NCBI GenBank assembly: GCA_000004985.1
Contig: GG738866.1
Source: Naegleria gruberi
Taxonomy: Eukaryota
Reading direction: 5' to 3' (one strand)
Length of the DNA: 64,000 bases
Shown: in pieces, positions 1 through 47,560 of the stretch
Numbering within the stretch: the stretch's first letter is position 1
Layout of the letters: each line of letters begins with the position of its first letter
Made by a program: the position numbers and the translations under genes
Notes under the pieces: model-generated
What the model was told of the DNA's origin: nothing
The model's input: only the letters and a program-made list of their open reading frames with translations
The model's database searches: none

Positions 1-1
1 T

Positions 2-10776: not shown

Positions 10777-10797
10777 TAAACGTGGCGAGCCATGAAA

Positions 10798-10802
10798 TTT
10801 TT
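10798..10802 (+). terminator. Pol III terminator (T5) 22 nt downstream of tRNA-Gln
   Basis: GAAATTTTTATTTT follows the tRNA 3' end. Confidence 0.5.
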
Positions 10803-11058
10803 ATTTTCAAATTGTTCAAATTGATGCATCACTTGTATGTTAATTTTGATGATACTCCAGTTCACTCCATCAATTCCACACAAAATTTCTCCATTAAGCT
10901 GAAATACCGTACTCAACGGTCCAAAATGAACACTTTTACAAAAACTGAAACAGCCCATTCAATGATTCACTTTGCACAATTTGCTATCCACGCAAACGCT
11001 CCCAACACCAAGATTTCAAAGATTTCGCAGCAAACCAAAATCCAAATAAAAAAAATAA

Positions 11059-14000
11059 NNNNNNNNNNNNNNNNNNNNNNNNNNNNNNNNNNNNNNNNNN
11101 NNNNNNNNNNNNNNNNNNNNNNNNNNNNNNNNNNNNNNNNNNNNNNNNNNNNNNNNNNNNNNNNNNNNNNNNNNNNNNNNNNNNNNNNNNNNNNNNNNNN
11201 NNNNNNNNNNNNNNNNNNNNNNNNNNNNNNNNNNNNNNNNNNNNNNNNNNNNNNNNNNNNNNNNNNNNNNNNNNNNNNNNNNNNNNNNNNNNNNNNNNNN
11301 NNNNNNNNNNNNNNNNNNNNNNNNNNNNNNNNNNNNNNNNNNNNNNNNNNNNNNNNNNNNNNNNNNNNNNNNNNNNNNNNNNNNNNNNNNNNNNNNNNNN
11401 NNNNNNNNNNNNNNNNNNNNNNNNNNNNNNNNNNNNNNNNNNNNNNNNNNNNNNNNNNNNNNNNNNNNNNNNNNNNNNNNNNNNNNNNNNNNNNNNNNNN
11501 NNNNNNNNNNNNNNNNNNNNNNNNNNNNNNNNNNNNNNNNNNNNNNNNNNNNNNNNNNNNNNNNNNNNNNNNNNNNNNNNNNNNNNNNNNNNNNNNNNNN
11601 NNNNNNNNNNNNNNNNNNNNNNNNNNNNNNNNNNNNNNNNNNNNNNNNNNNNNNNNNNNNNNNNNNNNNNNNNNNNNNNNNNNNNNNNNNNNNNNNNNNN
11701 NNNNNNNNNNNNNNNNNNNNNNNNNNNNNNNNNNNNNNNNNNNNNNNNNNNNNNNNNNNNNNNNNNNNNNNNNNNNNNNNNNNNNNNNNNNNNNNNNNNN
11801 NNNNNNNNNNNNNNNNNNNNNNNNNNNNNNNNNNNNNNNNNNNNNNNNNNNNNNNNNNNNNNNNNNNNNNNNNNNNNNNNNNNNNNNNNNNNNNNNNNNN
11901 NNNNNNNNNNNNNNNNNNNNNNNNNNNNNNNNNNNNNNNNNNNNNNNNNNNNNNNNNNNNNNNNNNNNNNNNNNNNNNNNNNNNNNNNNNNNNNNNNNNN
12001 NNNNNNNNNNNNNNNNNNNNNNNNNNNNNNNNNNNNNNNNNNNNNNNNNNNNNNNNNNNNNNNNNNNNNNNNNNNNNNNNNNNNNNNNNNNNNNNNNNNN
12101 NNNNNNNNNNNNNNNNNNNNNNNNNNNNNNNNNNNNNNNNNNNNNNNNNNNNNNNNNNNNNNNNNNNNNNNNNNNNNNNNNNNNNNNNNNNNNNNNNNNN
12201 NNNNNNNNNNNNNNNNNNNNNNNNNNNNNNNNNNNNNNNNNNNNNNNNNNNNNNNNNNNNNNNNNNNNNNNNNNNNNNNNNNNNNNNNNNNNNNNNNNNN
12301 NNNNNNNNNNNNNNNNNNNNNNNNNNNNNNNNNNNNNNNNNNNNNNNNNNNNNNNNNNNNNNNNNNNNNNNNNNNNNNNNNNNNNNNNNNNNNNNNNNNN
12401 NNNNNNNNNNNNNNNNNNNNNNNNNNNNNNNNNNNNNNNNNNNNNNNNNNNNNNNNNNNNNNNNNNNNNNNNNNNNNNNNNNNNNNNNNNNNNNNNNNNN
12501 NNNNNNNNNNNNNNNNNNNNNNNNNNNNNNNNNNNNNNNNNNNNNNNNNNNNNNNNNNNNNNNNNNNNNNNNNNNNNNNNNNNNNNNNNNNNNNNNNNNN
12601 NNNNNNNNNNNNNNNNNNNNNNNNNNNNNNNNNNNNNNNNNNNNNNNNNNNNNNNNNNNNNNNNNNNNNNNNNNNNNNNNNNNNNNNNNNNNNNNNNNNN
12701 NNNNNNNNNNNNNNNNNNNNNNNNNNNNNNNNNNNNNNNNNNNNNNNNNNNNNNNNNNNNNNNNNNNNNNNNNNNNNNNNNNNNNNNNNNNNNNNNNNNN
12801 NNNNNNNNNNNNNNNNNNNNNNNNNNNNNNNNNNNNNNNNNNNNNNNNNNNNNNNNNNNNNNNNNNNNNNNNNNNNNNNNNNNNNNNNNNNNNNNNNNNN
12901 NNNNNNNNNNNNNNNNNNNNNNNNNNNNNNNNNNNNNNNNNNNNNNNNNNNNNNNNNNNNNNNNNNNNNNNNNNNNNNNNNNNNNNNNNNNNNNNNNNNN
13001 NNNNNNNNNNNNNNNNNNNNNNNNNNNNNNNNNNNNNNNNNNNNNNNNNNNNNNNNNNNNNNNNNNNNNNNNNNNNNNNNNNNNNNNNNNNNNNNNNNNN
13101 NNNNNNNNNNNNNNNNNNNNNNNNNNNNNNNNNNNNNNNNNNNNNNNNNNNNNNNNNNNNNNNNNNNNNNNNNNNNNNNNNNNNNNNNNNNNNNNNNNNN
13201 NNNNNNNNNNNNNNNNNNNNNNNNNNNNNNNNNNNNNNNNNNNNNNNNNNNNNNNNNNNNNNNNNNNNNNNNNNNNNNNNNNNNNNNNNNNNNNNNNNNN
13301 NNNNNNNNNNNNNNNNNNNNNNNNNNNNNNNNNNNNNNNNNNNNNNNNNNNNNNNNNNNNNNNNNNNNNNNNNNNNNNNNNNNNNNNNNNNNNNNNNNNN
13401 NNNNNNNNNNNNNNNNNNNNNNNNNNNNNNNNNNNNNNNNNNNNNNNNNNNNNNNNNNNNNNNNNNNNNNNNNNNNNNNNNNNNNNNNNNNNNNNNNNNN
13501 NNNNNNNNNNNNNNNNNNNNNNNNNNNNNNNNNNNNNNNNNNNNNNNNNNNNNNNNNNNNNNNNNNNNNNNNNNNNNNNNNNNNNNNNNNNNNNNNNNNN
13601 NNNNNNNNNNNNNNNNNNNNNNNNNNNNNNNNNNNNNNNNNNNNNNNNNNNNNNNNNNNNNNNNNNNNNNNNNNNNNNNNNNNNNNNNNNNNNNNNNNNN
13701 NNNNNNNNNNNNNNNNNNNNNNNNNNNNNNNNNNNNNNNNNNNNNNNNNNNNNNNNNNNNNNNNNNNNNNNNNNNNNNNNNNNNNNNNNNNNNNNNNNNN
13801 NNNNNNNNNNNNNNNNNNNNNNNNNNNNNNNNNNNNNNNNNNNNNNNNNNNNNNNNNNNNNNNNNNNNNNNNNNNNNNNNNNNNNNNNNNNNNNNNNNNN
13901 NNNNNNNNNNNNNNNNNNNNNNNNNNNNNNNNNNNNNNNNNNNNNNNNNNNNNNNNNNNNNNNNNNNNNNNNNNNNNNNNNNNNNNNNNNNNNNNNNNNN

Positions 14001-17000
14001 NNNNNNNNNNNNNNNNNNNNNNNNNNNNNNNNNNNNNNNNNNNNNNNNNNNNNNNNNNNNNNNNNNNNNNNNNNNNNNNNNNNNNNNNNNNNNNNNNNNN
14101 NNNNNNNNNNNNNNNNNNNNNNNNNNNNNNNNNNNNNNNNNNNNNNNNNNNNNNNNNNNNNNNNNNNNNNNNNNNNNNNNNNNNNNNNNNNNNNNNNNNN
14201 NNNNNNNNNNNNNNNNNNNNNNNNNNNNNNNNNNNNNNNNNNNNNNNNNNNNNNNNNNNNNNNNNNNNNNNNNNNNNNNNNNNNNNNNNNNNNNNNNNNN
14301 NNNNNNNNNNNNNNNNNNNNNNNNNNNNNNNNNNNNNNNNNNNNNNNNNNNNNNNNNNNNNNNNNNNNNNNNNNNNNNNNNNNNNNNNNNNNNNNNNNNN
14401 NNNNNNNNNNNNNNNNNNNNNNNNNNNNNNNNNNNNNNNNNNNNNNNNNNNNNNNNNNNNNNNNNNNNNNNNNNNNNNNNNNNNNNNNNNNNNNNNNNNN
14501 NNNNNNNNNNNNNNNNNNNNNNNNNNNNNNNNNNNNNNNNNNNNNNNNNNNNNNNNNNNNNNNNNNNNNNNNNNNNNNNNNNNNNNNNNNNNNNNNNNNN
14601 NNNNNNNNNNNNNNNNNNNNNNNNNNNNNNNNNNNNNNNNNNNNNNNNNNNNNNNNNNNNNNNNNNNNNNNNNNNNNNNNNNNNNNNNNNNNNNNNNNNN
14701 NNNNNNNNNNNNNNNNNNNNNNNNNNNNNNNNNNNNNNNNNNNNNNNNNNNNNNNNNNNNNNNNNNNNNNNNNNNNNNNNNNNNNNNNNNNNNNNNNNNN
14801 NNNNNNNNNNNNNNNNNNNNNNNNNNNNNNNNNNNNNNNNNNNNNNNNNNNNNNNNNNNNNNNNNNNNNNNNNNNNNNNNNNNNNNNNNNNNNNNNNNNN
14901 NNNNNNNNNNNNNNNNNNNNNNNNNNNNNNNNNNNNNNNNNNNNNNNNNNNNNNNNNNNNNNNNNNNNNNNNNNNNNNNNNNNNNNNNNNNNNNNNNNNN
15001 NNNNNNNNNNNNNNNNNNNNNNNNNNNNNNNNNNNNNNNNNNNNNNNNNNNNNNNNNNNNNNNNNNNNNNNNNNNNNNNNNNNNNNNNNNNNNNNNNNNN
15101 NNNNNNNNNNNNNNNNNNNNNNNNNNNNNNNNNNNNNNNNNNNNNNNNNNNNNNNNNNNNNNNNNNNNNNNNNNNNNNNNNNNNNNNNNNNNNNNNNNNN
15201 NNNNNNNNNNNNNNNNNNNNNNNNNNNNNNNNNNNNNNNNNNNNNNNNNNNNNNNNNNNNNNNNNNNNNNNNNNNNNNNNNNNNNNNNNNNNNNNNNNNN
15301 NNNNNNNNNNNNNNNNNNNNNNNNNNNNNNNNNNNNNNNNNNNNNNNNNNNNNNNNNNNNNNNNNNNNNNNNNNNNNNNNNNNNNNNNNNNNNNNNNNNN
15401 NNNNNNNNNNNNNNNNNNNNNNNNNNNNNNNNNNNNNNNNNNNNNNNNNNNNNNNNNNNNNNNNNNNNNNNNNNNNNNNNNNNNNNNNNNNNNNNNNNNN
15501 NNNNNNNNNNNNNNNNNNNNNNNNNNNNNNNNNNNNNNNNNNNNNNNNNNNNNNNNNNNNNNNNNNNNNNNNNNNNNNNNNNNNNNNNNNNNNNNNNNNN
15601 NNNNNNNNNNNNNNNNNNNNNNNNNNNNNNNNNNNNNNNNNNNNNNNNNNNNNNNNNNNNNNNNNNNNNNNNNNNNNNNNNNNNNNNNNNNNNNNNNNNN
15701 NNNNNNNNNNNNNNNNNNNNNNNNNNNNNNNNNNNNNNNNNNNNNNNNNNNNNNNNNNNNNNNNNNNNNNNNNNNNNNNNNNNNNNNNNNNNNNNNNNNN
15801 NNNNNNNNNNNNNNNNNNNNNNNNNNNNNNNNNNNNNNNNNNNNNNNNNNNNNNNNNNNNNNNNNNNNNNNNNNNNNNNNNNNNNNNNNNNNNNNNNNNN
15901 NNNNNNNNNNNNNNNNNNNNNNNNNNNNNNNNNNNNNNNNNNNNNNNNNNNNNNNNNNNNNNNNNNNNNNNNNNNNNNNNNNNNNNNNNNNNNNNNNNNN
16001 NNNNNNNNNNNNNNNNNNNNNNNNNNNNNNNNNNNNNNNNNNNNNNNNNNNNNNNNNNNNNNNNNNNNNNNNNNNNNNNNNNNNNNNNNNNNNNNNNNNN
16101 NNNNNNNNNNNNNNNNNNNNNNNNNNNNNNNNNNNNNNNNNNNNNNNNNNNNNNNNNNNNNNNNNNNNNNNNNNNNNNNNNNNNNNNNNNNNNNNNNNNN
16201 NNNNNNNNNNNNNNNNNNNNNNNNNNNNNNNNNNNNNNNNNNNNNNNNNNNNNNNNNNNNNNNNNNNNNNNNNNNNNNNNNNNNNNNNNNNNNNNNNNNN
16301 NNNNNNNNNNNNNNNNNNNNNNNNNNNNNNNNNNNNNNNNNNNNNNNNNNNNNNNNNNNNNNNNNNNNNNNNNNNNNNNNNNNNNNNNNNNNNNNNNNNN
16401 NNNNNNNNNNNNNNNNNNNNNNNNNNNNNNNNNNNNNNNNNNNNNNNNNNNNNNNNNNNNNNNNNNNNNNNNNNNNNNNNNNNNNNNNNNNNNNNNNNNN
16501 NNNNNNNNNNNNNNNNNNNNNNNNNNNNNNNNNNNNNNNNNNNNNNNNNNNNNNNNNNNNNNNNNNNNNNNNNNNNNNNNNNNNNNNNNNNNNNNNNNNN
16601 NNNNNNNNNNNNNNNNNNNNNNNNNNNNNNNNNNNNNNNNNNNNNNNNNNNNNNNNNNNNNNNNNNNNNNNNNNNNNNNNNNNNNNNNNNNNNNNNNNNN
16701 NNNNNNNNNNNNNNNNNNNNNNNNNNNNNNNNNNNNNNNNNNNNNNNNNNNNNNNNNNNNNNNNNNNNNNNNNNNNNNNNNNNNNNNNNNNNNNNNNNNN
16801 NNNNNNNNNNNNNNNNNNNNNNNNNNNNNNNNNNNNNNNNNNNNNNNNNNNNNNNNNNNNNNNNNNNNNNNNNNNNNNNNNNNNNNNNNNNNNNNNNNNN
16901 NNNNNNNNNNNNNNNNNNNNNNNNNNNNNNNNNNNNNNNNNNNNNNNNNNNNNNNNNNNNNNNNNNNNNNNNNNNNNNNNNNNNNNNNNNNNNNNNNNNN

Positions 17001-20000
17001 NNNNNNNNNNNNNNNNNNNNNNNNNNNNNNNNNNNNNNNNNNNNNNNNNNNNNNNNNNNNNNNNNNNNNNNNNNNNNNNNNNNNNNNNNNNNNNNNNNNN
17101 NNNNNNNNNNNNNNNNNNNNNNNNNNNNNNNNNNNNNNNNNNNNNNNNNNNNNNNNNNNNNNNNNNNNNNNNNNNNNNNNNNNNNNNNNNNNNNNNNNNN
17201 NNNNNNNNNNNNNNNNNNNNNNNNNNNNNNNNNNNNNNNNNNNNNNNNNNNNNNNNNNNNNNNNNNNNNNNNNNNNNNNNNNNNNNNNNNNNNNNNNNNN
17301 NNNNNNNNNNNNNNNNNNNNNNNNNNNNNNNNNNNNNNNNNNNNNNNNNNNNNNNNNNNNNNNNNNNNNNNNNNNNNNNNNNNNNNNNNNNNNNNNNNNN
17401 NNNNNNNNNNNNNNNNNNNNNNNNNNNNNNNNNNNNNNNNNNNNNNNNNNNNNNNNNNNNNNNNNNNNNNNNNNNNNNNNNNNNNNNNNNNNNNNNNNNN
17501 NNNNNNNNNNNNNNNNNNNNNNNNNNNNNNNNNNNNNNNNNNNNNNNNNNNNNNNNNNNNNNNNNNNNNNNNNNNNNNNNNNNNNNNNNNNNNNNNNNNN
17601 NNNNNNNNNNNNNNNNNNNNNNNNNNNNNNNNNNNNNNNNNNNNNNNNNNNNNNNNNNNNNNNNNNNNNNNNNNNNNNNNNNNNNNNNNNNNNNNNNNNN
17701 NNNNNNNNNNNNNNNNNNNNNNNNNNNNNNNNNNNNNNNNNNNNNNNNNNNNNNNNNNNNNNNNNNNNNNNNNNNNNNNNNNNNNNNNNNNNNNNNNNNN
17801 NNNNNNNNNNNNNNNNNNNNNNNNNNNNNNNNNNNNNNNNNNNNNNNNNNNNNNNNNNNNNNNNNNNNNNNNNNNNNNNNNNNNNNNNNNNNNNNNNNNN
17901 NNNNNNNNNNNNNNNNNNNNNNNNNNNNNNNNNNNNNNNNNNNNNNNNNNNNNNNNNNNNNNNNNNNNNNNNNNNNNNNNNNNNNNNNNNNNNNNNNNNN
18001 NNNNNNNNNNNNNNNNNNNNNNNNNNNNNNNNNNNNNNNNNNNNNNNNNNNNNNNNNNNNNNNNNNNNNNNNNNNNNNNNNNNNNNNNNNNNNNNNNNNN
18101 NNNNNNNNNNNNNNNNNNNNNNNNNNNNNNNNNNNNNNNNNNNNNNNNNNNNNNNNNNNNNNNNNNNNNNNNNNNNNNNNNNNNNNNNNNNNNNNNNNNN
18201 NNNNNNNNNNNNNNNNNNNNNNNNNNNNNNNNNNNNNNNNNNNNNNNNNNNNNNNNNNNNNNNNNNNNNNNNNNNNNNNNNNNNNNNNNNNNNNNNNNNN
18301 NNNNNNNNNNNNNNNNNNNNNNNNNNNNNNNNNNNNNNNNNNNNNNNNNNNNNNNNNNNNNNNNNNNNNNNNNNNNNNNNNNNNNNNNNNNNNNNNNNNN
18401 NNNNNNNNNNNNNNNNNNNNNNNNNNNNNNNNNNNNNNNNNNNNNNNNNNNNNNNNNNNNNNNNNNNNNNNNNNNNNNNNNNNNNNNNNNNNNNNNNNNN
18501 NNNNNNNNNNNNNNNNNNNNNNNNNNNNNNNNNNNNNNNNNNNNNNNNNNNNNNNNNNNNNNNNNNNNNNNNNNNNNNNNNNNNNNNNNNNNNNNNNNNN
18601 NNNNNNNNNNNNNNNNNNNNNNNNNNNNNNNNNNNNNNNNNNNNNNNNNNNNNNNNNNNNNNNNNNNNNNNNNNNNNNNNNNNNNNNNNNNNNNNNNNNN
18701 NNNNNNNNNNNNNNNNNNNNNNNNNNNNNNNNNNNNNNNNNNNNNNNNNNNNNNNNNNNNNNNNNNNNNNNNNNNNNNNNNNNNNNNNNNNNNNNNNNNN
18801 NNNNNNNNNNNNNNNNNNNNNNNNNNNNNNNNNNNNNNNNNNNNNNNNNNNNNNNNNNNNNNNNNNNNNNNNNNNNNNNNNNNNNNNNNNNNNNNNNNNN
18901 NNNNNNNNNNNNNNNNNNNNNNNNNNNNNNNNNNNNNNNNNNNNNNNNNNNNNNNNNNNNNNNNNNNNNNNNNNNNNNNNNNNNNNNNNNNNNNNNNNNN
19001 NNNNNNNNNNNNNNNNNNNNNNNNNNNNNNNNNNNNNNNNNNNNNNNNNNNNNNNNNNNNNNNNNNNNNNNNNNNNNNNNNNNNNNNNNNNNNNNNNNNN
19101 NNNNNNNNNNNNNNNNNNNNNNNNNNNNNNNNNNNNNNNNNNNNNNNNNNNNNNNNNNNNNNNNNNNNNNNNNNNNNNNNNNNNNNNNNNNNNNNNNNNN
19201 NNNNNNNNNNNNNNNNNNNNNNNNNNNNNNNNNNNNNNNNNNNNNNNNNNNNNNNNNNNNNNNNNNNNNNNNNNNNNNNNNNNNNNNNNNNNNNNNNNNN
19301 NNNNNNNNNNNNNNNNNNNNNNNNNNNNNNNNNNNNNNNNNNNNNNNNNNNNNNNNNNNNNNNNNNNNNNNNNNNNNNNNNNNNNNNNNNNNNNNNNNNN
19401 NNNNNNNNNNNNNNNNNNNNNNNNNNNNNNNNNNNNNNNNNNNNNNNNNNNNNNNNNNNNNNNNNNNNNNNNNNNNNNNNNNNNNNNNNNNNNNNNNNNN
19501 NNNNNNNNNNNNNNNNNNNNNNNNNNNNNNNNNNNNNNNNNNNNNNNNNNNNNNNNNNNNNNNNNNNNNNNNNNNNNNNNNNNNNNNNNNNNNNNNNNNN
19601 NNNNNNNNNNNNNNNNNNNNNNNNNNNNNNNNNNNNNNNNNNNNNNNNNNNNNNNNNNNNNNNNNNNNNNNNNNNNNNNNNNNNNNNNNNNNNNNNNNNN
19701 NNNNNNNNNNNNNNNNNNNNNNNNNNNNNNNNNNNNNNNNNNNNNNNNNNNNNNNNNNNNNNNNNNNNNNNNNNNNNNNNNNNNNNNNNNNNNNNNNNNN
19801 NNNNNNNNNNNNNNNNNNNNNNNNNNNNNNNNNNNNNNNNNNNNNNNNNNNNNNNNNNNNNNNNNNNNNNNNNNNNNNNNNNNNNNNNNNNNNNNNNNNN
19901 NNNNNNNNNNNNNNNNNNNNNNNNNNNNNNNNNNNNNNNNNNNNNNNNNNNNNNNNNNNNNNNNNNNNNNNNNNNNNNNNNNNNNNNNNNNNNNNNNNNN

Positions 20001-35000: not shown

Positions 35001-38000
35001 NNNNNNNNNNNNNNNNNNNNNNNNNNNNNNNNNNNNNNNNNNNNNNNNNNNNNNNNNNNNNNNNNNNNNNNNNNNNNNNNNNNNNNNNNNNNNNNNNNNN
35101 NNNNNNNNNNNNNNNNNNNNNNNNNNNNNNNNNNNNNNNNNNNNNNNNNNNNNNNNNNNNNNNNNNNNNNNNNNNNNNNNNNNNNNNNNNNNNNNNNNNN
35201 NNNNNNNNNNNNNNNNNNNNNNNNNNNNNNNNNNNNNNNNNNNNNNNNNNNNNNNNNNNNNNNNNNNNNNNNNNNNNNNNNNNNNNNNNNNNNNNNNNNN
35301 NNNNNNNNNNNNNNNNNNNNNNNNNNNNNNNNNNNNNNNNNNNNNNNNNNNNNNNNNNNNNNNNNNNNNNNNNNNNNNNNNNNNNNNNNNNNNNNNNNNN
35401 NNNNNNNNNNNNNNNNNNNNNNNNNNNNNNNNNNNNNNNNNNNNNNNNNNNNNNNNNNNNNNNNNNNNNNNNNNNNNNNNNNNNNNNNNNNNNNNNNNNN
35501 NNNNNNNNNNNNNNNNNNNNNNNNNNNNNNNNNNNNNNNNNNNNNNNNNNNNNNNNNNNNNNNNNNNNNNNNNNNNNNNNNNNNNNNNNNNNNNNNNNNN
35601 NNNNNNNNNNNNNNNNNNNNNNNNNNNNNNNNNNNNNNNNNNNNNNNNNNNNNNNNNNNNNNNNNNNNNNNNNNNNNNNNNNNNNNNNNNNNNNNNNNNN
35701 NNNNNNNNNNNNNNNNNNNNNNNNNNNNNNNNNNNNNNNNNNNNNNNNNNNNNNNNNNNNNNNNNNNNNNNNNNNNNNNNNNNNNNNNNNNNNNNNNNNN
35801 NNNNNNNNNNNNNNNNNNNNNNNNNNNNNNNNNNNNNNNNNNNNNNNNNNNNNNNNNNNNNNNNNNNNNNNNNNNNNNNNNNNNNNNNNNNNNNNNNNNN
35901 NNNNNNNNNNNNNNNNNNNNNNNNNNNNNNNNNNNNNNNNNNNNNNNNNNNNNNNNNNNNNNNNNNNNNNNNNNNNNNNNNNNNNNNNNNNNNNNNNNNN
36001 NNNNNNNNNNNNNNNNNNNNNNNNNNNNNNNNNNNNNNNNNNNNNNNNNNNNNNNNNNNNNNNNNNNNNNNNNNNNNNNNNNNNNNNNNNNNNNNNNNNN
36101 NNNNNNNNNNNNNNNNNNNNNNNNNNNNNNNNNNNNNNNNNNNNNNNNNNNNNNNNNNNNNNNNNNNNNNNNNNNNNNNNNNNNNNNNNNNNNNNNNNNN
36201 NNNNNNNNNNNNNNNNNNNNNNNNNNNNNNNNNNNNNNNNNNNNNNNNNNNNNNNNNNNNNNNNNNNNNNNNNNNNNNNNNNNNNNNNNNNNNNNNNNNN
36301 NNNNNNNNNNNNNNNNNNNNNNNNNNNNNNNNNNNNNNNNNNNNNNNNNNNNNNNNNNNNNNNNNNNNNNNNNNNNNNNNNNNNNNNNNNNNNNNNNNNN
36401 NNNNNNNNNNNNNNNNNNNNNNNNNNNNNNNNNNNNNNNNNNNNNNNNNNNNNNNNNNNNNNNNNNNNNNNNNNNNNNNNNNNNNNNNNNNNNNNNNNNN
36501 NNNNNNNNNNNNNNNNNNNNNNNNNNNNNNNNNNNNNNNNNNNNNNNNNNNNNNNNNNNNNNNNNNNNNNNNNNNNNNNNNNNNNNNNNNNNNNNNNNNN
36601 NNNNNNNNNNNNNNNNNNNNNNNNNNNNNNNNNNNNNNNNNNNNNNNNNNNNNNNNNNNNNNNNNNNNNNNNNNNNNNNNNNNNNNNNNNNNNNNNNNNN
36701 NNNNNNNNNNNNNNNNNNNNNNNNNNNNNNNNNNNNNNNNNNNNNNNNNNNNNNNNNNNNNNNNNNNNNNNNNNNNNNNNNNNNNNNNNNNNNNNNNNNN
36801 NNNNNNNNNNNNNNNNNNNNNNNNNNNNNNNNNNNNNNNNNNNNNNNNNNNNNNNNNNNNNNNNNNNNNNNNNNNNNNNNNNNNNNNNNNNNNNNNNNNN
36901 NNNNNNNNNNNNNNNNNNNNNNNNNNNNNNNNNNNNNNNNNNNNNNNNNNNNNNNNNNNNNNNNNNNNNNNNNNNNNNNNNNNNNNNNNNNNNNNNNNNN
37001 NNNNNNNNNNNNNNNNNNNNNNNNNNNNNNNNNNNNNNNNNNNNNNNNNNNNNNNNNNNNNNNNNNNNNNNNNNNNNNNNNNNNNNNNNNNNNNNNNNNN
37101 NNNNNNNNNNNNNNNNNNNNNNNNNNNNNNNNNNNNNNNNNNNNNNNNNNNNNNNNNNNNNNNNNNNNNNNNNNNNNNNNNNNNNNNNNNNNNNNNNNNN
37201 NNNNNNNNNNNNNNNNNNNNNNNNNNNNNNNNNNNNNNNNNNNNNNNNNNNNNNNNNNNNNNNNNNNNNNNNNNNNNNNNNNNNNNNNNNNNNNNNNNNN
37301 NNNNNNNNNNNNNNNNNNNNNNNNNNNNNNNNNNNNNNNNNNNNNNNNNNNNNNNNNNNNNNNNNNNNNNNNNNNNNNNNNNNNNNNNNNNNNNNNNNNN
37401 NNNNNNNNNNNNNNNNNNNNNNNNNNNNNNNNNNNNNNNNNNNNNNNNNNNNNNNNNNNNNNNNNNNNNNNNNNNNNNNNNNNNNNNNNNNNNNNNNNNN
37501 NNNNNNNNNNNNNNNNNNNNNNNNNNNNNNNNNNNNNNNNNNNNNNNNNNNNNNNNNNNNNNNNNNNNNNNNNNNNNNNNNNNNNNNNNNNNNNNNNNNN
37601 NNNNNNNNNNNNNNNNNNNNNNNNNNNNNNNNNNNNNNNNNNNNNNNNNNNNNNNNNNNNNNNNNNNNNNNNNNNNNNNNNNNNNNNNNNNNNNNNNNNN
37701 NNNNNNNNNNNNNNNNNNNNNNNNNNNNNNNNNNNNNNNNNNNNNNNNNNNNNNNNNNNNNNNNNNNNNNNNNNNNNNNNNNNNNNNNNNNNNNNNNNNN
37801 NNNNNNNNNNNNNNNNNNNNNNNNNNNNNNNNNNNNNNNNNNNNNNNNNNNNNNNNNNNNNNNNNNNNNNNNNNNNNNNNNNNNNNNNNNNNNNNNNNNN
37901 NNNNNNNNNNNNNNNNNNNNNNNNNNNNNNNNNNNNNNNNNNNNNNNNNNNNNNNNNNNNNNNNNNNNNNNNNNNNNNNNNNNNNNNNNNNNNNNNNNNN

Positions 38001-41000
38001 NNNNNNNNNNNNNNNNNNNNNNNNNNNNNNNNNNNNNNNNNNNNNNNNNNNNNNNNNNNNNNNNNNNNNNNNNNNNNNNNNNNNNNNNNNNNNNNNNNNN
38101 NNNNNNNNNNNNNNNNNNNNNNNNNNNNNNNNNNNNNNNNNNNNNNNNNNNNNNNNNNNNNNNNNNNNNNNNNNNNNNNNNNNNNNNNNNNNNNNNNNNN
38201 NNNNNNNNNNNNNNNNNNNNNNNNNNNNNNNNNNNNNNNNNNNNNNNNNNNNNNNNNNNNNNNNNNNNNNNNNNNNNNNNNNNNNNNNNNNNNNNNNNNN
38301 NNNNNNNNNNNNNNNNNNNNNNNNNNNNNNNNNNNNNNNNNNNNNNNNNNNNNNNNNNNNNNNNNNNNNNNNNNNNNNNNNNNNNNNNNNNNNNNNNNNN
38401 NNNNNNNNNNNNNNNNNNNNNNNNNNNNNNNNNNNNNNNNNNNNNNNNNNNNNNNNNNNNNNNNNNNNNNNNNNNNNNNNNNNNNNNNNNNNNNNNNNNN
38501 NNNNNNNNNNNNNNNNNNNNNNNNNNNNNNNNNNNNNNNNNNNNNNNNNNNNNNNNNNNNNNNNNNNNNNNNNNNNNNNNNNNNNNNNNNNNNNNNNNNN
38601 NNNNNNNNNNNNNNNNNNNNNNNNNNNNNNNNNNNNNNNNNNNNNNNNNNNNNNNNNNNNNNNNNNNNNNNNNNNNNNNNNNNNNNNNNNNNNNNNNNNN
38701 NNNNNNNNNNNNNNNNNNNNNNNNNNNNNNNNNNNNNNNNNNNNNNNNNNNNNNNNNNNNNNNNNNNNNNNNNNNNNNNNNNNNNNNNNNNNNNNNNNNN
38801 NNNNNNNNNNNNNNNNNNNNNNNNNNNNNNNNNNNNNNNNNNNNNNNNNNNNNNNNNNNNNNNNNNNNNNNNNNNNNNNNNNNNNNNNNNNNNNNNNNNN
38901 NNNNNNNNNNNNNNNNNNNNNNNNNNNNNNNNNNNNNNNNNNNNNNNNNNNNNNNNNNNNNNNNNNNNNNNNNNNNNNNNNNNNNNNNNNNNNNNNNNNN
39001 NNNNNNNNNNNNNNNNNNNNNNNNNNNNNNNNNNNNNNNNNNNNNNNNNNNNNNNNNNNNNNNNNNNNNNNNNNNNNNNNNNNNNNNNNNNNNNNNNNNN
39101 NNNNNNNNNNNNNNNNNNNNNNNNNNNNNNNNNNNNNNNNNNNNNNNNNNNNNNNNNNNNNNNNNNNNNNNNNNNNNNNNNNNNNNNNNNNNNNNNNNNN
39201 NNNNNNNNNNNNNNNNNNNNNNNNNNNNNNNNNNNNNNNNNNNNNNNNNNNNNNNNNNNNNNNNNNNNNNNNNNNNNNNNNNNNNNNNNNNNNNNNNNNN
39301 NNNNNNNNNNNNNNNNNNNNNNNNNNNNNNNNNNNNNNNNNNNNNNNNNNNNNNNNNNNNNNNNNNNNNNNNNNNNNNNNNNNNNNNNNNNNNNNNNNNN
39401 NNNNNNNNNNNNNNNNNNNNNNNNNNNNNNNNNNNNNNNNNNNNNNNNNNNNNNNNNNNNNNNNNNNNNNNNNNNNNNNNNNNNNNNNNNNNNNNNNNNN
39501 NNNNNNNNNNNNNNNNNNNNNNNNNNNNNNNNNNNNNNNNNNNNNNNNNNNNNNNNNNNNNNNNNNNNNNNNNNNNNNNNNNNNNNNNNNNNNNNNNNNN
39601 NNNNNNNNNNNNNNNNNNNNNNNNNNNNNNNNNNNNNNNNNNNNNNNNNNNNNNNNNNNNNNNNNNNNNNNNNNNNNNNNNNNNNNNNNNNNNNNNNNNN
39701 NNNNNNNNNNNNNNNNNNNNNNNNNNNNNNNNNNNNNNNNNNNNNNNNNNNNNNNNNNNNNNNNNNNNNNNNNNNNNNNNNNNNNNNNNNNNNNNNNNNN
39801 NNNNNNNNNNNNNNNNNNNNNNNNNNNNNNNNNNNNNNNNNNNNNNNNNNNNNNNNNNNNNNNNNNNNNNNNNNNNNNNNNNNNNNNNNNNNNNNNNNNN
39901 NNNNNNNNNNNNNNNNNNNNNNNNNNNNNNNNNNNNNNNNNNNNNNNNNNNNNNNNNNNNNNNNNNNNNNNNNNNNNNNNNNNNNNNNNNNNNNNNNNNN
40001 NNNNNNNNNNNNNNNNNNNNNNNNNNNNNNNNNNNNNNNNNNNNNNNNNNNNNNNNNNNNNNNNNNNNNNNNNNNNNNNNNNNNNNNNNNNNNNNNNNNN
40101 NNNNNNNNNNNNNNNNNNNNNNNNNNNNNNNNNNNNNNNNNNNNNNNNNNNNNNNNNNNNNNNNNNNNNNNNNNNNNNNNNNNNNNNNNNNNNNNNNNNN
40201 NNNNNNNNNNNNNNNNNNNNNNNNNNNNNNNNNNNNNNNNNNNNNNNNNNNNNNNNNNNNNNNNNNNNNNNNNNNNNNNNNNNNNNNNNNNNNNNNNNNN
40301 NNNNNNNNNNNNNNNNNNNNNNNNNNNNNNNNNNNNNNNNNNNNNNNNNNNNNNNNNNNNNNNNNNNNNNNNNNNNNNNNNNNNNNNNNNNNNNNNNNNN
40401 NNNNNNNNNNNNNNNNNNNNNNNNNNNNNNNNNNNNNNNNNNNNNNNNNNNNNNNNNNNNNNNNNNNNNNNNNNNNNNNNNNNNNNNNNNNNNNNNNNNN
40501 NNNNNNNNNNNNNNNNNNNNNNNNNNNNNNNNNNNNNNNNNNNNNNNNNNNNNNNNNNNNNNNNNNNNNNNNNNNNNNNNNNNNNNNNNNNNNNNNNNNN
40601 NNNNNNNNNNNNNNNNNNNNNNNNNNNNNNNNNNNNNNNNNNNNNNNNNNNNNNNNNNNNNNNNNNNNNNNNNNNNNNNNNNNNNNNNNNNNNNNNNNNN
40701 NNNNNNNNNNNNNNNNNNNNNNNNNNNNNNNNNNNNNNNNNNNNNNNNNNNNNNNNNNNNNNNNNNNNNNNNNNNNNNNNNNNNNNNNNNNNNNNNNNNN
40801 NNNNNNNNNNNNNNNNNNNNNNNNNNNNNNNNNNNNNNNNNNNNNNNNNNNNNNNNNNNNNNNNNNNNNNNNNNNNNNNNNNNNNNNNNNNNNNNNNNNN
40901 NNNNNNNNNNNNNNNNNNNNNNNNNNNNNNNNNNNNNNNNNNNNNNNNNNNNNNNNNNNNNNNNNNNNNNNNNNNNNNNNNNNNNNNNNNNNNNNNNNNN

Positions 41001-44000
41001 NNNNNNNNNNNNNNNNNNNNNNNNNNNNNNNNNNNNNNNNNNNNNNNNNNNNNNNNNNNNNNNNNNNNNNNNNNNNNNNNNNNNNNNNNNNNNNNNNNNN
41101 NNNNNNNNNNNNNNNNNNNNNNNNNNNNNNNNNNNNNNNNNNNNNNNNNNNNNNNNNNNNNNNNNNNNNNNNNNNNNNNNNNNNNNNNNNNNNNNNNNNN
41201 NNNNNNNNNNNNNNNNNNNNNNNNNNNNNNNNNNNNNNNNNNNNNNNNNNNNNNNNNNNNNNNNNNNNNNNNNNNNNNNNNNNNNNNNNNNNNNNNNNNN
41301 NNNNNNNNNNNNNNNNNNNNNNNNNNNNNNNNNNNNNNNNNNNNNNNNNNNNNNNNNNNNNNNNNNNNNNNNNNNNNNNNNNNNNNNNNNNNNNNNNNNN
41401 NNNNNNNNNNNNNNNNNNNNNNNNNNNNNNNNNNNNNNNNNNNNNNNNNNNNNNNNNNNNNNNNNNNNNNNNNNNNNNNNNNNNNNNNNNNNNNNNNNNN
41501 NNNNNNNNNNNNNNNNNNNNNNNNNNNNNNNNNNNNNNNNNNNNNNNNNNNNNNNNNNNNNNNNNNNNNNNNNNNNNNNNNNNNNNNNNNNNNNNNNNNN
41601 NNNNNNNNNNNNNNNNNNNNNNNNNNNNNNNNNNNNNNNNNNNNNNNNNNNNNNNNNNNNNNNNNNNNNNNNNNNNNNNNNNNNNNNNNNNNNNNNNNNN
41701 NNNNNNNNNNNNNNNNNNNNNNNNNNNNNNNNNNNNNNNNNNNNNNNNNNNNNNNNNNNNNNNNNNNNNNNNNNNNNNNNNNNNNNNNNNNNNNNNNNNN
41801 NNNNNNNNNNNNNNNNNNNNNNNNNNNNNNNNNNNNNNNNNNNNNNNNNNNNNNNNNNNNNNNNNNNNNNNNNNNNNNNNNNNNNNNNNNNNNNNNNNNN
41901 NNNNNNNNNNNNNNNNNNNNNNNNNNNNNNNNNNNNNNNNNNNNNNNNNNNNNNNNNNNNNNNNNNNNNNNNNNNNNNNNNNNNNNNNNNNNNNNNNNNN
42001 NNNNNNNNNNNNNNNNNNNNNNNNNNNNNNNNNNNNNNNNNNNNNNNNNNNNNNNNNNNNNNNNNNNNNNNNNNNNNNNNNNNNNNNNNNNNNNNNNNNN
42101 NNNNNNNNNNNNNNNNNNNNNNNNNNNNNNNNNNNNNNNNNNNNNNNNNNNNNNNNNNNNNNNNNNNNNNNNNNNNNNNNNNNNNNNNNNNNNNNNNNNN
42201 NNNNNNNNNNNNNNNNNNNNNNNNNNNNNNNNNNNNNNNNNNNNNNNNNNNNNNNNNNNNNNNNNNNNNNNNNNNNNNNNNNNNNNNNNNNNNNNNNNNN
42301 NNNNNNNNNNNNNNNNNNNNNNNNNNNNNNNNNNNNNNNNNNNNNNNNNNNNNNNNNNNNNNNNNNNNNNNNNNNNNNNNNNNNNNNNNNNNNNNNNNNN
42401 NNNNNNNNNNNNNNNNNNNNNNNNNNNNNNNNNNNNNNNNNNNNNNNNNNNNNNNNNNNNNNNNNNNNNNNNNNNNNNNNNNNNNNNNNNNNNNNNNNNN
42501 NNNNNNNNNNNNNNNNNNNNNNNNNNNNNNNNNNNNNNNNNNNNNNNNNNNNNNNNNNNNNNNNNNNNNNNNNNNNNNNNNNNNNNNNNNNNNNNNNNNN
42601 NNNNNNNNNNNNNNNNNNNNNNNNNNNNNNNNNNNNNNNNNNNNNNNNNNNNNNNNNNNNNNNNNNNNNNNNNNNNNNNNNNNNNNNNNNNNNNNNNNNN
42701 NNNNNNNNNNNNNNNNNNNNNNNNNNNNNNNNNNNNNNNNNNNNNNNNNNNNNNNNNNNNNNNNNNNNNNNNNNNNNNNNNNNNNNNNNNNNNNNNNNNN
42801 NNNNNNNNNNNNNNNNNNNNNNNNNNNNNNNNNNNNNNNNNNNNNNNNNNNNNNNNNNNNNNNNNNNNNNNNNNNNNNNNNNNNNNNNNNNNNNNNNNNN
42901 NNNNNNNNNNNNNNNNNNNNNNNNNNNNNNNNNNNNNNNNNNNNNNNNNNNNNNNNNNNNNNNNNNNNNNNNNNNNNNNNNNNNNNNNNNNNNNNNNNNN
43001 NNNNNNNNNNNNNNNNNNNNNNNNNNNNNNNNNNNNNNNNNNNNNNNNNNNNNNNNNNNNNNNNNNNNNNNNNNNNNNNNNNNNNNNNNNNNNNNNNNNN
43101 NNNNNNNNNNNNNNNNNNNNNNNNNNNNNNNNNNNNNNNNNNNNNNNNNNNNNNNNNNNNNNNNNNNNNNNNNNNNNNNNNNNNNNNNNNNNNNNNNNNN
43201 NNNNNNNNNNNNNNNNNNNNNNNNNNNNNNNNNNNNNNNNNNNNNNNNNNNNNNNNNNNNNNNNNNNNNNNNNNNNNNNNNNNNNNNNNNNNNNNNNNNN
43301 NNNNNNNNNNNNNNNNNNNNNNNNNNNNNNNNNNNNNNNNNNNNNNNNNNNNNNNNNNNNNNNNNNNNNNNNNNNNNNNNNNNNNNNNNNNNNNNNNNNN
43401 NNNNNNNNNNNNNNNNNNNNNNNNNNNNNNNNNNNNNNNNNNNNNNNNNNNNNNNNNNNNNNNNNNNNNNNNNNNNNNNNNNNNNNNNNNNNNNNNNNNN
43501 NNNNNNNNNNNNNNNNNNNNNNNNNNNNNNNNNNNNNNNNNNNNNNNNNNNNNNNNNNNNNNNNNNNNNNNNNNNNNNNNNNNNNNNNNNNNNNNNNNNN
43601 NNNNNNNNNNNNNNNNNNNNNNNNNNNNNNNNNNNNNNNNNNNNNNNNNNNNNNNNNNNNNNNNNNNNNNNNNNNNNNNNNNNNNNNNNNNNNNNNNNNN
43701 NNNNNNNNNNNNNNNNNNNNNNNNNNNNNNNNNNNNNNNNNNNNNNNNNNNNNNNNNNNNNNNNNNNNNNNNNNNNNNNNNNNNNNNNNNNNNNNNNNNN
43801 NNNNNNNNNNNNNNNNNNNNNNNNNNNNNNNNNNNNNNNNNNNNNNNNNNNNNNNNNNNNNNNNNNNNNNNNNNNNNNNNNNNNNNNNNNNNNNNNNNNN
43901 NNNNNNNNNNNNNNNNNNNNNNNNNNNNNNNNNNNNNNNNNNNNNNNNNNNNNNNNNNNNNNNNNNNNNNNNNNNNNNNNNNNNNNNNNNNNNNNNNNNN

Positions 44001-46783
44001 NNNNNNNNNNNNNNNNNNNNNNNNNNNNNNNNNNNNNNNNNNNNNNNNNNNNNNNNNNNNNNNNNNNNNNNNNNNNNNNNNNNNNNNNNNNNNNNNNNNN
44101 NNNNNNNNNNNNNNNNNNNNNNNNNNNNNNNNNNNNNNNNNNNNNNNNNNNNNNNNNNNNNNNNNNNNNNNNNNNNNNNNNNNNNNNNNNNNNNNNNNNN
44201 NNNNNNNNNNNNNNNNNNNNNNNNNNNNNNNNNNNNNNNNNNNNNNNNNNNNNNNNNNNNNNNNNNNNNNNNNNNNNNNNNNNNNNNNNNNNNNNNNNNN
44301 NNNNNNNNNNNNNNNNNNNNNNNNNNNNNNNNNNNNNNNNNNNNNNNNNNNNNNNNNNNNNNNNNNNNNNNNNNNNNNNNNNNNNNNNNNNNNNNNNNNN
44401 NNNNNNNNNNNNNNNNNNNNNNNNNNNNNNNNNNNNNNNNNNNNNNNNNNNNNNNNNNNNNNNNNNNNNNNNNNNNNNNNNNNNNNNNNNNNNNNNNNNN
44501 NNNNNNNNNNNNNNNNNNNNNNNNNNNNNNNNNNNNNNNNNNNNNNNNNNNNNNNNNNNNNNNNNNNNNNNNNNNNNNNNNNNNNNNNNNNNNNNNNNNN
44601 NNNNNNNNNNNNNNNNNNNNNNNNNNNNNNNNNNNNNNNNNNNNNNNNNNNNNNNNNNNNNNNNNNNNNNNNNNNNNNNNNNNNNNNNNNNNNNNNNNNN
44701 NNNNNNNNNNNNNNNNNNNNNNNNNNNNNNNNNNNNNNNNNNNNNNNNNNNNNNNNNNNNNNNNNNNNNNNNNNNNNNNNNNNNNNNNNNNNNNNNNNNN
44801 NNNNNNNNNNNNNNNNNNNNNNNNNNNNNNNNNNNNNNNNNNNNNNNNNNNNNNNNNNNNNNNNNNNNNNNNNNNNNNNNNNNNNNNNNNNNNNNNNNNN
44901 NNNNNNNNNNNNNNNNNNNNNNNNNNNNNNNNNNNNNNNNNNNNNNNNNNNNNNNNNNNNNNNNNNNNNNNNNNNNNNNNNNNNNNNNNNNNNNNNNNNN
45001 NNNNNNNNNNNNNNNNNNNNNNNNNNNNNNNNNNNNNNNNNNNNNNNNNNNNNNNNNNNNNNNNNNNNNNNNNNNNNNNNNNNNNNNNNNNNNNNNNNNN
45101 NNNNNNNNNNNNNNNNNNNNNNNNNNNNNNNNNNNNNNNNNNNNNNNNNNNNNNNNNNNNNNNNNNNNNNNNNNNNNNNNNNNNNNNNNNNNNNNNNNNN
45201 NNNNNNNNNNNNNNNNNNNNNNNNNNNNNNNNNNNNNNNNNNNNNNNNNNNNNNNNNNNNNNNNNNNNNNNNNNNNNNNNNNNNNNNNNNNNNNNNNNNN
45301 NNNNNNNNNNNNNNNNNNNNNNNNNNNNNNNNNNNNNNNNNNNNNNNNNNNNNNNNNNNNNNNNNNNNNNNNNNNNNNNNNNNNNNNNNNNNNNNNNNNN
45401 NNNNNNNNNNNNNNNNNNNNNNNNNNNNNNNNNNNNNNNNNNNNNNNNNNNNNNNNNNNNNNNNNNNNNNNNNNNNNNNNNNNNNNNNNNNNNNNNNNNN
45501 NNNNNNNNNNNNNNNNNNNNNNNNNNNNNNNNNNNNNNNNNNNNNNNNNNNNNNNNNNNNNNNNNNNNNNNNNNNNNNNNNNNNNNNNNNNNNNNNNNNN
45601 NNNNNNNNNNNNNNNNNNNNNNNNNNNNNNNNNNNNNNNNNNNNNNNNNNNNNNNNNNNNNNNNNNNNNNNNNNNNNNNNNNNNNNNNNNNNNNNNNNNN
45701 NNNNNNNNNNNNNNNNNNNNNNNNNNNNNNNNNNNNNNNNNNNNNNNNNNNNNNNNNNNNNNNNNNNNNNNNNNNNNNNNNNNNNNNNNNNNNNNNNNNN
45801 NNNNNNNNNNNNNNNNNNNNNNNNNNNNNNNNNNNNNNNNNNNNNNNNNNNNNNNNNNNNNNNNNNNNNNNNNNNNNNNNNNNNNNNNNNNNNNNNNNNN
45901 NNNNNNNNNNNNNNNNNNNNNNNNNNNNNNNNNNNNNNNNNNNNNNNNNNNNNNNNNNNNNNNNNNNNNNNNNNNNNNNNNNNNNNNNNNNNNNNNNNNN
46001 NNNNNNNNNNNNNNNNNNNNNNNNNNNNNNNNNNNNNNNNNNNNNNNNNNNNNNNNNNNNNNNNNNNNNNNNNNNNNNNNNNNNNNNNNNNNNNNNNNNN
46101 NNNNNNNNNNNNNNNNNNNNNNNNNNNNNNNNNNNNNNNNNNNNNNNNNNNNNNNNNNNNNNNNNNNNNNNNNNNNNNNNNNNNNNNNNNNNNNNNNNNN
46201 NNNNNNNNNNNNNNNNNNNNNNNNNNNNNNNNNNNNNNNNNNNNNNNNNNNNNNNNNNNNNNNNNNNNNNNNNNNNNNNNNNNNNNNNNNNNNNNNNNNN
46301 NNNNNNNNNNNNNNNNNNNNNNNNNNNNNNNNNNNNNNNNNNNNNNNNNNNNNNNNNNNNNNNNNNNNNNNNNNNNNNNNNNNNNNNNNNNNNNNNNNNN
46401 NNNNNNNNNNNNNNNNNNNNNNNNNNNNNNNNNNNNNNNNNNNNNNNNNNNNNNNNNNNNNNNNNNNNNNNNNNNNNNNNNNNNNNNNNNNNNNNNNNNN
46501 NNNNNNNNNNNNNNNNNNNNNNNNNNNNNNNNNNNNNNNNNNNNNNNNNNNNNNNNNNNNNNNNNNNNNNNNNNNNNNNNNNNNNNNNNNNNNNNNNNNN
46601 NNNNNNNNNNNNNNNNNNNNNNNNNNNNNNNNNNNNNNNNNNNNNNNNNNNNNNNNNNNNNNNNNNNNNNNNNNNNNNNNNNNNNNNNNNNNNNNNNNNN
46701 NNNNNNNNNNNNNNNNNNNNNNNNNNNNNNNNNNNNNNNNNNNNNNNNNNNNNNNNNNNNNNNNNNNNNNNNNNNNNNNNNNN
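11059..46783. other. assembly gap, 35,725 N
   Basis: Continuous n-run. ORF-track entries spanning it (10701..46808, 10967..46804, 11016..46823) are poly-X artefacts. Confidence 1.
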
Positions 46784-46959
46784 GGATAGAGTCAGCATAC
46801 GCAAGTAGATAGATTATTTCCAAGAATACTTACTTCGGAATAAGTGGAGACGACTCATCACTTCCACCTTAGGTTCTCTAGTCTTTTATGAAATTCATGA
46901 ACCTTAAGACTGATGAACCAGCTAGTTTATAATGAGTGATTGAGACAAAAGATGTCAAT

Positions 46960-47560
46960 GCCATACGGCTTACCAAACCTATACTTTGAGACCTTAATAG
47001 GTTCGAATAAGACAATGACTCCAACCACAATTATATTTACTCATTGCCTTATTCGATTTGATCTTTGATGAAAAATCGTTTAGGCGAATCAGATTTTAAT
47101 TGAATGAAATGTCATTTTCATGCAAGCTCAATATATTCGAAAAGGTCACTAAACTGCGCTATTCGAAATGTATTGACTTTTTACTATTGTGAAAGGTTTG
47201 AAACAGTGTCAAAAAAGTAGTTTCAAATAGATGTTTCTAAAGTCGCCAAAGATTGAAGAACTTGATAACCACTTGGTTAATATTTCAAATTGTTAATTGT
47301 TTAGGATGATATTTGGGATTCCAATGCCAGGTTTTGAGATAATGGTGGGCTTAGAATTTAACGAAAATGGTTTACCTGTTGTTTGCCTTCTTGACGTGTT
47401 TTGAAGCTTGGGAATACACTACAATTTCCTTTTTTATCTCAAAACGCGGCATAAAAATGAGTTTACGTCTGATTCCAATAATTCCAACAATGAACTGCTC
47501 GACGCATGTCATGCATCCAAAATAATACCCCATTTAGTCTAATCAACCCAAGAAACTAAA
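46960..47560. repeat. tandem repeat copy D (3' part of the unit) on the right side of the assembly gap
   Basis: GGTTCGAATAAGACAATGACTCCAACCACAATT…GATCTTTGATGAAAAATCGTTTAGGCGAATC…GACGCATGTCATGCATCCAAAATAATA aligns to 7741-8075 of copy A. An insert at 47210-47340 matches 9400-9560. Confidence 0.6.

Follow-up and report, generated by a model that had tools for sequence, protein, structure and literature searches.

A 35.7-kb run of N in a Naegleria gruberi scaffold is probably a sized assembly gap in a patch of decayed local duplications

More than half of the window, the whole 64-kb stretch of DNA analyzed here, consists of N, which raises the question of whether the missing stretch marks a genetic element or only a break in the data. 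A regular-expression search over the whole window confirmed the predicted assembly gap of 35.7 kb as one uninterrupted run of 35,725 bases and recovered a second run of exactly 50 bases about 1 kb away, absent from the original prediction. Between the two runs lies an island contig of 1,026 bp (10033-11058) that holds only a U2 snRNA gene and a tRNA-Gln gene. The non-N bases of the window have a GC content of 35.1%, with normal composition on both flanks; the published value for N. gruberi is 35% (PMC6125883 Table 1). We conclude, with a probability of roughly 85%, that the large run is a sized scaffold gap in the 2010 NEG-M draft and represents missing data, not a genetic element. As missing sequence amid local duplications that are old and decayed, it would be an ordinary data gap and no biological system. 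The original prediction held that the content was beyond assessment from the window, and we agree, as the gap interior is N only; with more than half of the window lacking information, no claim about a hidden "system" is possible.

The identity of the host and of its assembly shapes how the gap is to be read. The full length of the open reading frame (ORF) at 3827-5299 matches XP_002677569.1 / EFC44825.1 of Naegleria gruberi NEG-M at 100% identity, and the scaffold carrying that gene is 469,335 bp long. The window is therefore eukaryotic (Naegleria), not dictyostelid, bacterial, or viral, and the dictyostelid frame in which it had been placed has to be abandoned. The gap-sizing rule and library types would follow JGI practice, and we estimate that the 35.7-kb gap is probably among the larger ones of its assembly, which we take to be JGI N. 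gruberi NEG-M v1.0, a paired-end Sanger shotgun draft (Fritz-Laylin et al. 2010). Collapse in a short-read assembly, as originally invoked, does not apply to this source, a Sanger draft. The N. gruberi draft consists of 1977 contigs in 784 scaffolds (PMC6125883 Table 1), so that about 1,190 gaps are expected in it, and it was still the reference assembly in 2025 (PMC12344493). The features of the window that bear on the gap are collected in Table 1.

Table 1. Features on either side of the 35.7-kb run of N, in window coordinates
Feature	Position	Strand	Basis and remarks
ORF A, orphan protein-coding gene, 209 codons	6803-7432	+	ORF list; dN/dS 0.18; Pfam scan without match
Repeat copy A, intact 3' half of ORF A plus downstream tail	7067-7680	+	Self-alignments
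X, shortened copy of the noncoding element that is complete at D	7721-8070	+	Self-alignment
Repeat copy B, pseudogene fragment of ORF A	8077-8549	+	~180-bp internal deletion; in-frame stop
161-codon ORF lying between B and C	8732-9217	+	Predicted only; no significant Pfam match
X', part of the X/D element, immediately 5' of copy C	9464-9573	+	Self-alignment
Repeat copy C, B-type derivative with larger internal deletion	9581-9982	+	Alignment; truncated by the 50-N gap
Second N-run, 50 bases	9983-10032	none	Small or unknown-size gap; cuts repeat copy C
U2 spliceosomal snRNA gene	10046-10251	-	RF00004, 121.4 bits (gathering score 46), model positions 1-192 (full)
tRNA-Gln(TTG) gene	10705-10777	+	ARAGORN; RF00005, 68.8 bits; A and B boxes
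Left edge of large gap	10778-11058	none	Unique in window; A-rich run at end
Main N-run	11059-46783	none	Probable sized scaffold gap; no sequence information; regex and composition
Right edge of large gap	46784-46969	none	Unique in window
D, longest version of the noncoding X element, ~570 bp	46970-47539	+	Self-alignment; just 3' of the 1209-codon gene
Gene nearest the gap on its right side, 1209 codons	47717-51346	-	N. lovaniensis and N. fowleri orthologues are C2 domain-containing proteins (UniRef)

On the left flank, three copies share homology at 67 to 88% identity: A (7067-7680), B (8077-8549), and C (9581-9978). The best pair, 8273-8549 against 9682-9978, aligns at 88% (E = 1e-106), and inside this alignment of B with C is a 138-nt block at 99%. 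The last base of the left contig, 9982, is still homologous to copy B, so that the contig ends within copy C. The copies have diverged by 12 to 33% and differ in their internal deletions, derived indels are shared between copies, and the stop in copy B was read directly from the sequence. The alignments show that the source of the repeat is the 3' half of ORF A, which was copied twice as the decayed fragments B and C. A homogeneous family of ~1-kb repeats prone to assembly collapse, as had been proposed, is not what these diverged, unlike copies of a neighboring gene represent. ORF A itself probably starts at M41 (position 6923). A word-indexed search and an exhaustive HMMER search (1.84 billion representatives) each returned only one relative, P0029 on environmental contig L005, with 89.5% DNA identity. 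Given a dN/dS of 0.18 over 169 codons in this comparison, ORF A is a genuine gene under purifying selection relative to its environmental counterpart. It is also an unannotated, lineage-specific orphan gene.

A noncoding element is found on both sides of the gap. The three diverged copies of this X family (X, X', and D) occur in the window only near the gap. Across it, 7721-7915 matches 46970-47172 at 84% (E = 1e-57), 8036-8070 matches 47505-47539 at 97%, and 9464-9573 matches 47216-47325 at 72 to 76% (E = 1e-10 to 1e-13). Repeat relatives had been predicted at 9400-9560 and 47210-47340; these coordinates agree closely with ours, and the similarity is far beyond chance. The accompanying statement that the repeat family borders the gap is right in that copies lie on both flanks and wrong in that none abuts the large gap: D begins 186 bp from its right edge, and in a self-comparison neither edge stretch (10778-11058 and 46784-46969) matched anywhere else in the window. 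The fragments of ORF A alternate with the noncoding element, which also stands alone across the gap, and the repeat unit is thus composite. Unit spacings are irregular, at 1010 and 1409-1485 bp, and TRF found no tandem, satellite, or telomere-like array in the visible flanks; with this irregular period and identities of only 67 to 88%, we rejected a tandem repeat array or satellite there. The suggestion that the region is centromere-proximal or subtelomeric finds nothing in the window that bears on it. The 8-mer TTTCGAAT forms a local cluster in the repeat patch, with 14 of its 16 window sites lying in X and B/C-type repeat units.

The island contig carries U2 and tRNA-Gln in divergent orientation, their 5' ends 453 bp apart, and a T5 terminator follows the tRNA gene at 10798-10802. 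Only 13 nt are visible between the 3' end of U2 and the 50-N run, and they contain no run of at least four T. A permissive Rfam scan of 5300-11058 for other small RNAs yielded U2, the tRNA, and one chance-level match only. The large gap does adjoin the tRNA-Gln gene as predicted, at a distance of 281 bases and not 283. The prediction of a Pol III gene cluster on both sides fared less well, as the whole window has one tRNA gene and one U2 gene, on the left side only, and Pol II makes U2 in nearly all eukaryotes. A stop-free frame on the + strand begins at 10701 (first ATG at 10824) and runs into the large gap; it has no Pfam match. Pfam scans of the sizeable flank ORFs returned no reverse transcriptase, endonuclease, integrase, or transposase domain, and the ORFs near tRNA-Gln are short or spurious, none of them long. 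The visible flanks therefore do not bear out the retroelements that the original prediction envisaged.

Related genomes say little about what is missing. N. lovaniensis and N. fowleri match only window positions 1-5772, the sole N. lovaniensis match on the left side, and the single gene at 47720-51394. The orthologues of this 1209-codon gene lie in a block conserved between N. lovaniensis and N. fowleri, where their neighbors are unlike those in the window, and the fetched loci of both species contain no snRNA or tRNA genes. In N. lovaniensis, the left-flank Trx-UBA-UBX gene has its orthologue on PYSW02000001.1 and the 1209-codon gene has its own on PYSW02000009.1. Synteny is thus too short-range for gap content to be predicted from either species, and we rejected any such prediction. 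Low synteny has been reported (Herman et al. 2013, as cited in PMC6125883). When JGI metagenomes were scanned with the 1209-codon protein, none of the 267 pattern matches was confirmed, and a scan of JGI metagenome contigs with a Naegleria-specific 22-nt segment of U2 gave no match.

These observations are consistent with a model in which two contigs would have been joined through long-insert read pairs and the estimated distance between them written as N. Assembly probably failed because the neighborhood is locally repetitive; it comprises ORF A, fragments B and C, the ~570-bp noncoding element in three copies (one of them across the gap), U2, and tRNA-Gln. The break may have been caused by near-identical further copies or by other unassemblable DNA in the missing stretch. 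The visible copies, 12 to 33% diverged, are too unlike to confuse a Sanger assembler alone, and a repeat-caused break therefore needs unseen, more similar copies. Further copies of the repeat units within the gap are plausible because the left contig stops in copy C, the island contig lies between gaps, and D is so close to the right edge. The unique sequence that touches the large gap on either side argues against a repeat-caused break.

A more specific content was originally predicted, with the ~1-kb unit (X plus a B/C-type fragment) repeated in a long tandem array, possibly mixed with tRNA-targeted retroelements, that may mark centromere-proximal or subtelomeric DNA. Units on both sides of the gap, a left contig that ends inside copy C, the 99% block of B and C, which could reflect sequence exchange between copies, and the concentration of TTTCGAAT in exactly these units all fit an array of this kind. 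However, the visible units number only two or three and are decayed, irregularly spaced, and low in identity; TRF detects no array in either flank; the sequence at both edges of the large gap is not repeat; and no retroelement domain was found in any part of the flanks. In the N. gruberi assembly, moreover, only ~0.28% of the sequence falls to classified transposable elements (bioRxiv 10.64898/2026.06.24.734286), the dictyostelid families that were invoked come from a different supergroup, and the window offers nothing on centromeres or telomeres. We consider such a hidden array unlikely. Very unlikely, in our judgment, is the bolder form, in which the gap would hide a homogenized array of composite units rich in TTTCGAAT, a heterochromatic and possibly centromere-associated domain whose eroded margins would be the copies seen in the flanks. 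The island contig invites a different thought, that it represents a tandem array of U2 and tRNA-Gln genes collapsed to its consensus, with the large gap as the uncollapsed remainder. Both gene types are commonly multicopy, and a short contig between two gaps that carries such genes is a layout typical of collapsed repeats in shotgun assemblies. Nevertheless, the two ends of the island share no similarity, so that no unit junction is visible, the sequence right of the gap has no further U2 or tRNA gene, the Naegleria-specific U2 segment is without a match in the JGI metagenome contigs, and the N. lovaniensis and N. fowleri loci lack both gene types. A U2/tRNA array is therefore quite improbable.

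Other explanations concern the scaffold and not its missing content. If the scaffold were misjoined, the flanks would not be genomic neighbors and the 35.7 kb would be a spurious link through repeated DNA. The location of the N. lovaniensis orthologues of the left- and right-flank genes on separate contigs could be taken in this sense, and members of the same repeat family near both contig ends could draw false mate-pair links. Yet synteny here is short-range and low, and the far-side neighbors differ too, so the separate N. lovaniensis contigs say little; X-family copies confined to the vicinity of the gap, on both sides, fit a single repeat-rich neighborhood. We judge a misjoin to be highly improbable. 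That the Ns are a mask laid over real sequence, and not a gap in the public record, is very unlikely: 1 kb away there is another N-run, of 50 bases, such as assemblers typically write; a contig end falls within a repeat copy; the published assembly has ~1,190 gaps; and 35,725, an odd length, is what an estimated distance would give.

A sized scaffold gap, our preferred reading, carries little biological weight, as it is one of ~1,190 gaps in a draft that, though old, continues to serve as the N. gruberi working reference. NEG-M Nanopore reads have already been published (PMC12344493), so a quick closure of the gap is possible. The purifying selection on ORF A, the TTTCGAAT cluster, and the divergent U2/tRNA-Gln pair are modest leads and not discoveries.

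In trypanosomatids, U2, U6, and 7SL are transcribed by Pol III, and a divergent companion tRNA gene lies ~95-100 bp upstream of the snRNA gene. The U2 and tRNA-Gln genes described here share the divergent orientation, and Naegleria likewise belongs to Discoba, but the 453 bp between their 5' ends, together with the lack of an A or B box nearer to U2, led us to reject a promoter unit of the trypanosomatid type. With the dictyostelid elements TRE5, TRE3, and DGLT-A, the locus has in common only a tRNA gene near the gap; the host is a heterolobosean, from another supergroup, and the visible sequence around the tRNA gene, 450 bp on its upstream and 281 bp on its downstream side, has no retroelement ORF or domain. 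The targeting of tRNA genes by these elements is not transferable because the host is N. gruberi (Heterolobosea), and we rejected tRNA-targeted retrotransposons of the dictyostelid kind. Local tandem or segmental duplication resembles the left flank in several respects: downstream of an intact ORF A come two copies of its 3' half and tail, the second more heavily deleted than the first; a stop is present in one of them, and derived indels are common to copies. It differs in that the fragments alternate with the noncoding X, X', and D, with D alone beyond the gap. From the sized scaffold gaps of paired-end Sanger drafts, in contrast, there is no difference in kind: the N-run has a non-round length between two contigs, a 50-N companion run is nearby, the contig ends lie in or next to repeated DNA, and the host assembly is known to be gapped, with its 1977 contigs in 784 scaffolds.

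The N-run at 11059-46783 (35,725 bases) confirms, at exactly those coordinates, the original prediction of a 35.7-kb assembly gap, and we regard it as an ordinary gap in the 2010 draft of a eukaryotic genome. A second N-run in the window is 50 bases long (9983-10032). The 28,225 non-N bases have a G+C content of 35.1%, close to the published N. gruberi value of 35% (PMC6125883 Table 1). An ORF at 3827-5299 with thioredoxin, UBA and UBX domains (Pfam scan) is 100% identical over its full length to EFC44825.1/XP_002677569.1, a protein of N. gruberi NEG-M encoded on a 469,335-bp scaffold, with the next-ranked matches in N. lovaniensis (72%) and Willaertia magna (55%). This identity, along with the G+C fit, places the window in a heterolobosean and not in a dictyostelid. 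The N. gruberi assembly (40.9 Mb, 5.1% repeats) consists of 1977 contigs in 784 scaffolds (PMC6125883 Table 1) and therefore contains ~1,190 gaps; it was still the reference in 2025 (PMC12344493). The public N. gruberi record likely has the identical Ns. We take the assembly to be a JGI paired-end Sanger shotgun. In such drafts, gaps are written as N at a length estimated from spanning clone pairs, and to our knowledge a gap of the 35.7-kb class can be spanned solely by fosmid-class inserts.

Comparison of the window with itself recovered the repeats that had been described on both flanks, including matches across the gap, and at the sequence level the similarities within A/B/C and within X/X'/D are beyond chance. 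The predicted single ~1-kb family is, however, a composite: the repeats are real and combine, within one neighbourhood, gene-derived sequence (A and the decayed fragments B and C) with a noncoding element (X, X' and D). Two to three eroded composite units lie on the left flank, and a single X-type copy stands alone on the right. This copy, D (46970-47539), is the longest version of the noncoding element; X (7721-8070) lacks the D-internal segment 47236-47504, and X' retains just part of the element (alignment A1). The proposal that these repeats border the gap on both sides holds insofar as related copies occur on each flank, but the stretches that touch the gap (10778-11058 and 46784-46969) have no match elsewhere in the window, and the closest left-side copy, C, runs into the 50-N gap rather than the large one. 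Within the B/C alignment, 88% identical overall, a 138-nt block is 99% identical (B 8349-8486, C 9775-9912); this candidate gene-conversion tract may reflect sequence exchange between the copies.

Repeat matches and RNA genes around the large gap
Feature	Position	Matched position	Strand	Identity or score	Remark
A	7067-7680			67-88%	mutual matches of A, B and C
B	8077-8549			67-88%	mutual matches of A, B and C
C	9581-9978			67-88%	mutual matches of A, B and C
B vs C	8273-8549	9682-9978		88%, E 1e-106	top pair
X vs D	7721-7915	46970-47172		84%, E 1e-57	
X vs D	8036-8070	47505-47539		97%	
X' vs D	9464-9573	47216-47325		72-76%	
U2 snRNA	10046-10251		-	121 bits	full length; Rfam
tRNA-Gln(TTG)	10705-10777		+		ARAGORN and Rfam; sole tRNA in window

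The gene fragments trace back to an ORF at 6803-7432 (+) (ORF A): copy A is its 3' half plus downstream tail and not a free-standing repeat. Among 5.8 billion clustered proteins ORF A has a lone relative, P0029, and P0029 alone was recovered again when 1.84 billion representatives were searched exhaustively with HMMER; the results included no N. gruberi protein model. P0029 is encoded on L005, a 1,311-bp ENA metagenome contig (ERR1078381, PRJEB11402), and is 95% identical to ORF A in protein, while L005 and window 6740-7672 are 89.5% identical in DNA. We counted 12 synonymous and 9 non-synonymous differences in an alignment of 169 codons (dS 0.127, dN 0.023), and the resulting dN/dS of 0.18 indicates a gene under purifying selection. 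ORF A thus appears to be a real gene absent from the annotation. The start of P0029 aligns with M41 of ORF A, which suggests that the true start is at 6923. Copy B has lost ~180 bp of coding sequence and then runs into a stop, and copy C lacks ~255 bp and shares the indels of B (alignment A2), so that C derives from a B-type copy. Beyond the end of A, L005 (642-1311) resembles DNA downstream of B (window 8214-8813, 69%) and contains no X element; both the insertion of X and the duplications are therefore confined to the NEG-M lineage or to close relatives of it. Upstream of ORF A lies an imperfect inverted repeat (6180-6243/6515-6578; 64-nt arms, 70% complementary, 271 nt apart).

The same neighbourhood is rich in the 8-mer TTTCGAAT, which occurs at 16 sites in the window against 2.1 expected (maximum 7 in 100 shuffles). 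Fourteen of these fall at 6068-9407 and 47135-47168, on both strands and in coding and noncoding DNA, often adjoining ACATGT (for example ACATGTATTCGAAACATGT at 8992-9010). L005 conserves all four of the sites that lie in ORF A, and the comparison loci from N. lovaniensis and N. fowleri (L001-L003), ~69 kb in total, contain the 8-mer just 4 times.

Between the two gaps lies an island contig of 1,026 bp that carries the U2 and tRNA-Gln genes. Instead of the proposed Pol III gene cluster flanking the gap, we found one Pol III gene and one U2 snRNA gene, on the left only, and U2 is a Pol II transcript in nearly all eukaryotes. The island has no A or B boxes other than those of tRNA-Gln itself, a T5 run follows this gene at 10798-10802, and its end lies 281 bases from the large N-run, close to the 283 bp first given. 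A TATA-like TTTATACA lies ~30 bp upstream of U2. A stop-free + frame (10701-11058, 119 codons; first ATG after the tRNA at 10824) enters the large gap without a Pfam match; this may mark the 5' end of a gene whose remainder is missing, or an open frame arising by chance in A-rich sequence.

What broke the assembly can be approached from the four contig ends: one lies within copy C, two bound the U2/tRNA island, and the fourth is 186 bp from D. Three of the four are suggestive, and the pattern is consistent with repeated DNA having interrupted the assembly. The copies in view differ too much from one another to have done so themselves, and this reading requires hidden copies of higher similarity. 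We put the chance that the gap holds at least one more unit of the X and gene-fragment elements at about even. That an array of such units makes up most of the gap is unlikely. Still less probable is a collapsed U2/tRNA array. Even permissive Rfam thresholds gave no further small RNAs on the left flank (5300-11058), nor were any found to the right. Alternatively, the scaffold could be misjoined, so that its flanks are not true neighbours. N. lovaniensis matches window 1-5772 and diverges beyond; gene order is conserved for two to three genes left of the gap and one gene to the right (47720-51394), and the orthologues of the two flanks lie on separate N. lovaniensis contigs (PYSW02000001.1 and PYSW02000009.1). 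The right-flank orthologues sit in a block conserved in N. lovaniensis and N. fowleri, which are collinear over 23 kb, and the neighbours of this block are unlike those in the window. That N. gruberi and N. fowleri share little synteny had, however, already been reported in work cited in PMC6125883, so the separate contigs argue only weakly for a misjoin, and comparison with these two species does not decide the content of the gap. Nothing can be claimed about that content without long reads, which are public for NEG-M (Nanopore R9 and R10; PMC12344493).

Retroelements of dictyostelid type had also been envisaged. Every sizeable flank ORF gave ordinary cellular Pfam domains (TPR, thioredoxin/UBA/UBX, metallophosphoesterase, adaptor medium subunit, esterase, hybrid histidine kinase) or nothing, with no transposon domain among them, and TRF gave only trivial microrepeats and no satellites in the flanks. 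Classified transposable elements make up 0.28% of the N. gruberi assembly (bioRxiv 10.64898/2026.06.24.734286). ORF 60850-62451 (-), which has no tie to the gap, probably encodes a hybrid histidine kinase, to judge by its HisKA, HATPase_c and receiver domains. The visible flanks thus bear no mobile-element domains and the host is heterolobosean, a lineage unrelated to that of the dictyostelid families named, and the visible sequence lends this proposal no support. In trypanosomatids, Pol III transcribes U2 under the control of a divergent tRNA gene located ~95-100 bp upstream. The Naegleria U2 and tRNA-Gln genes are divergent like the trypanosomatid snRNA genes and their companion tRNAs, but their 5' ends are 453 bp apart, a spacing that does not match the trypanosomatid arrangement.
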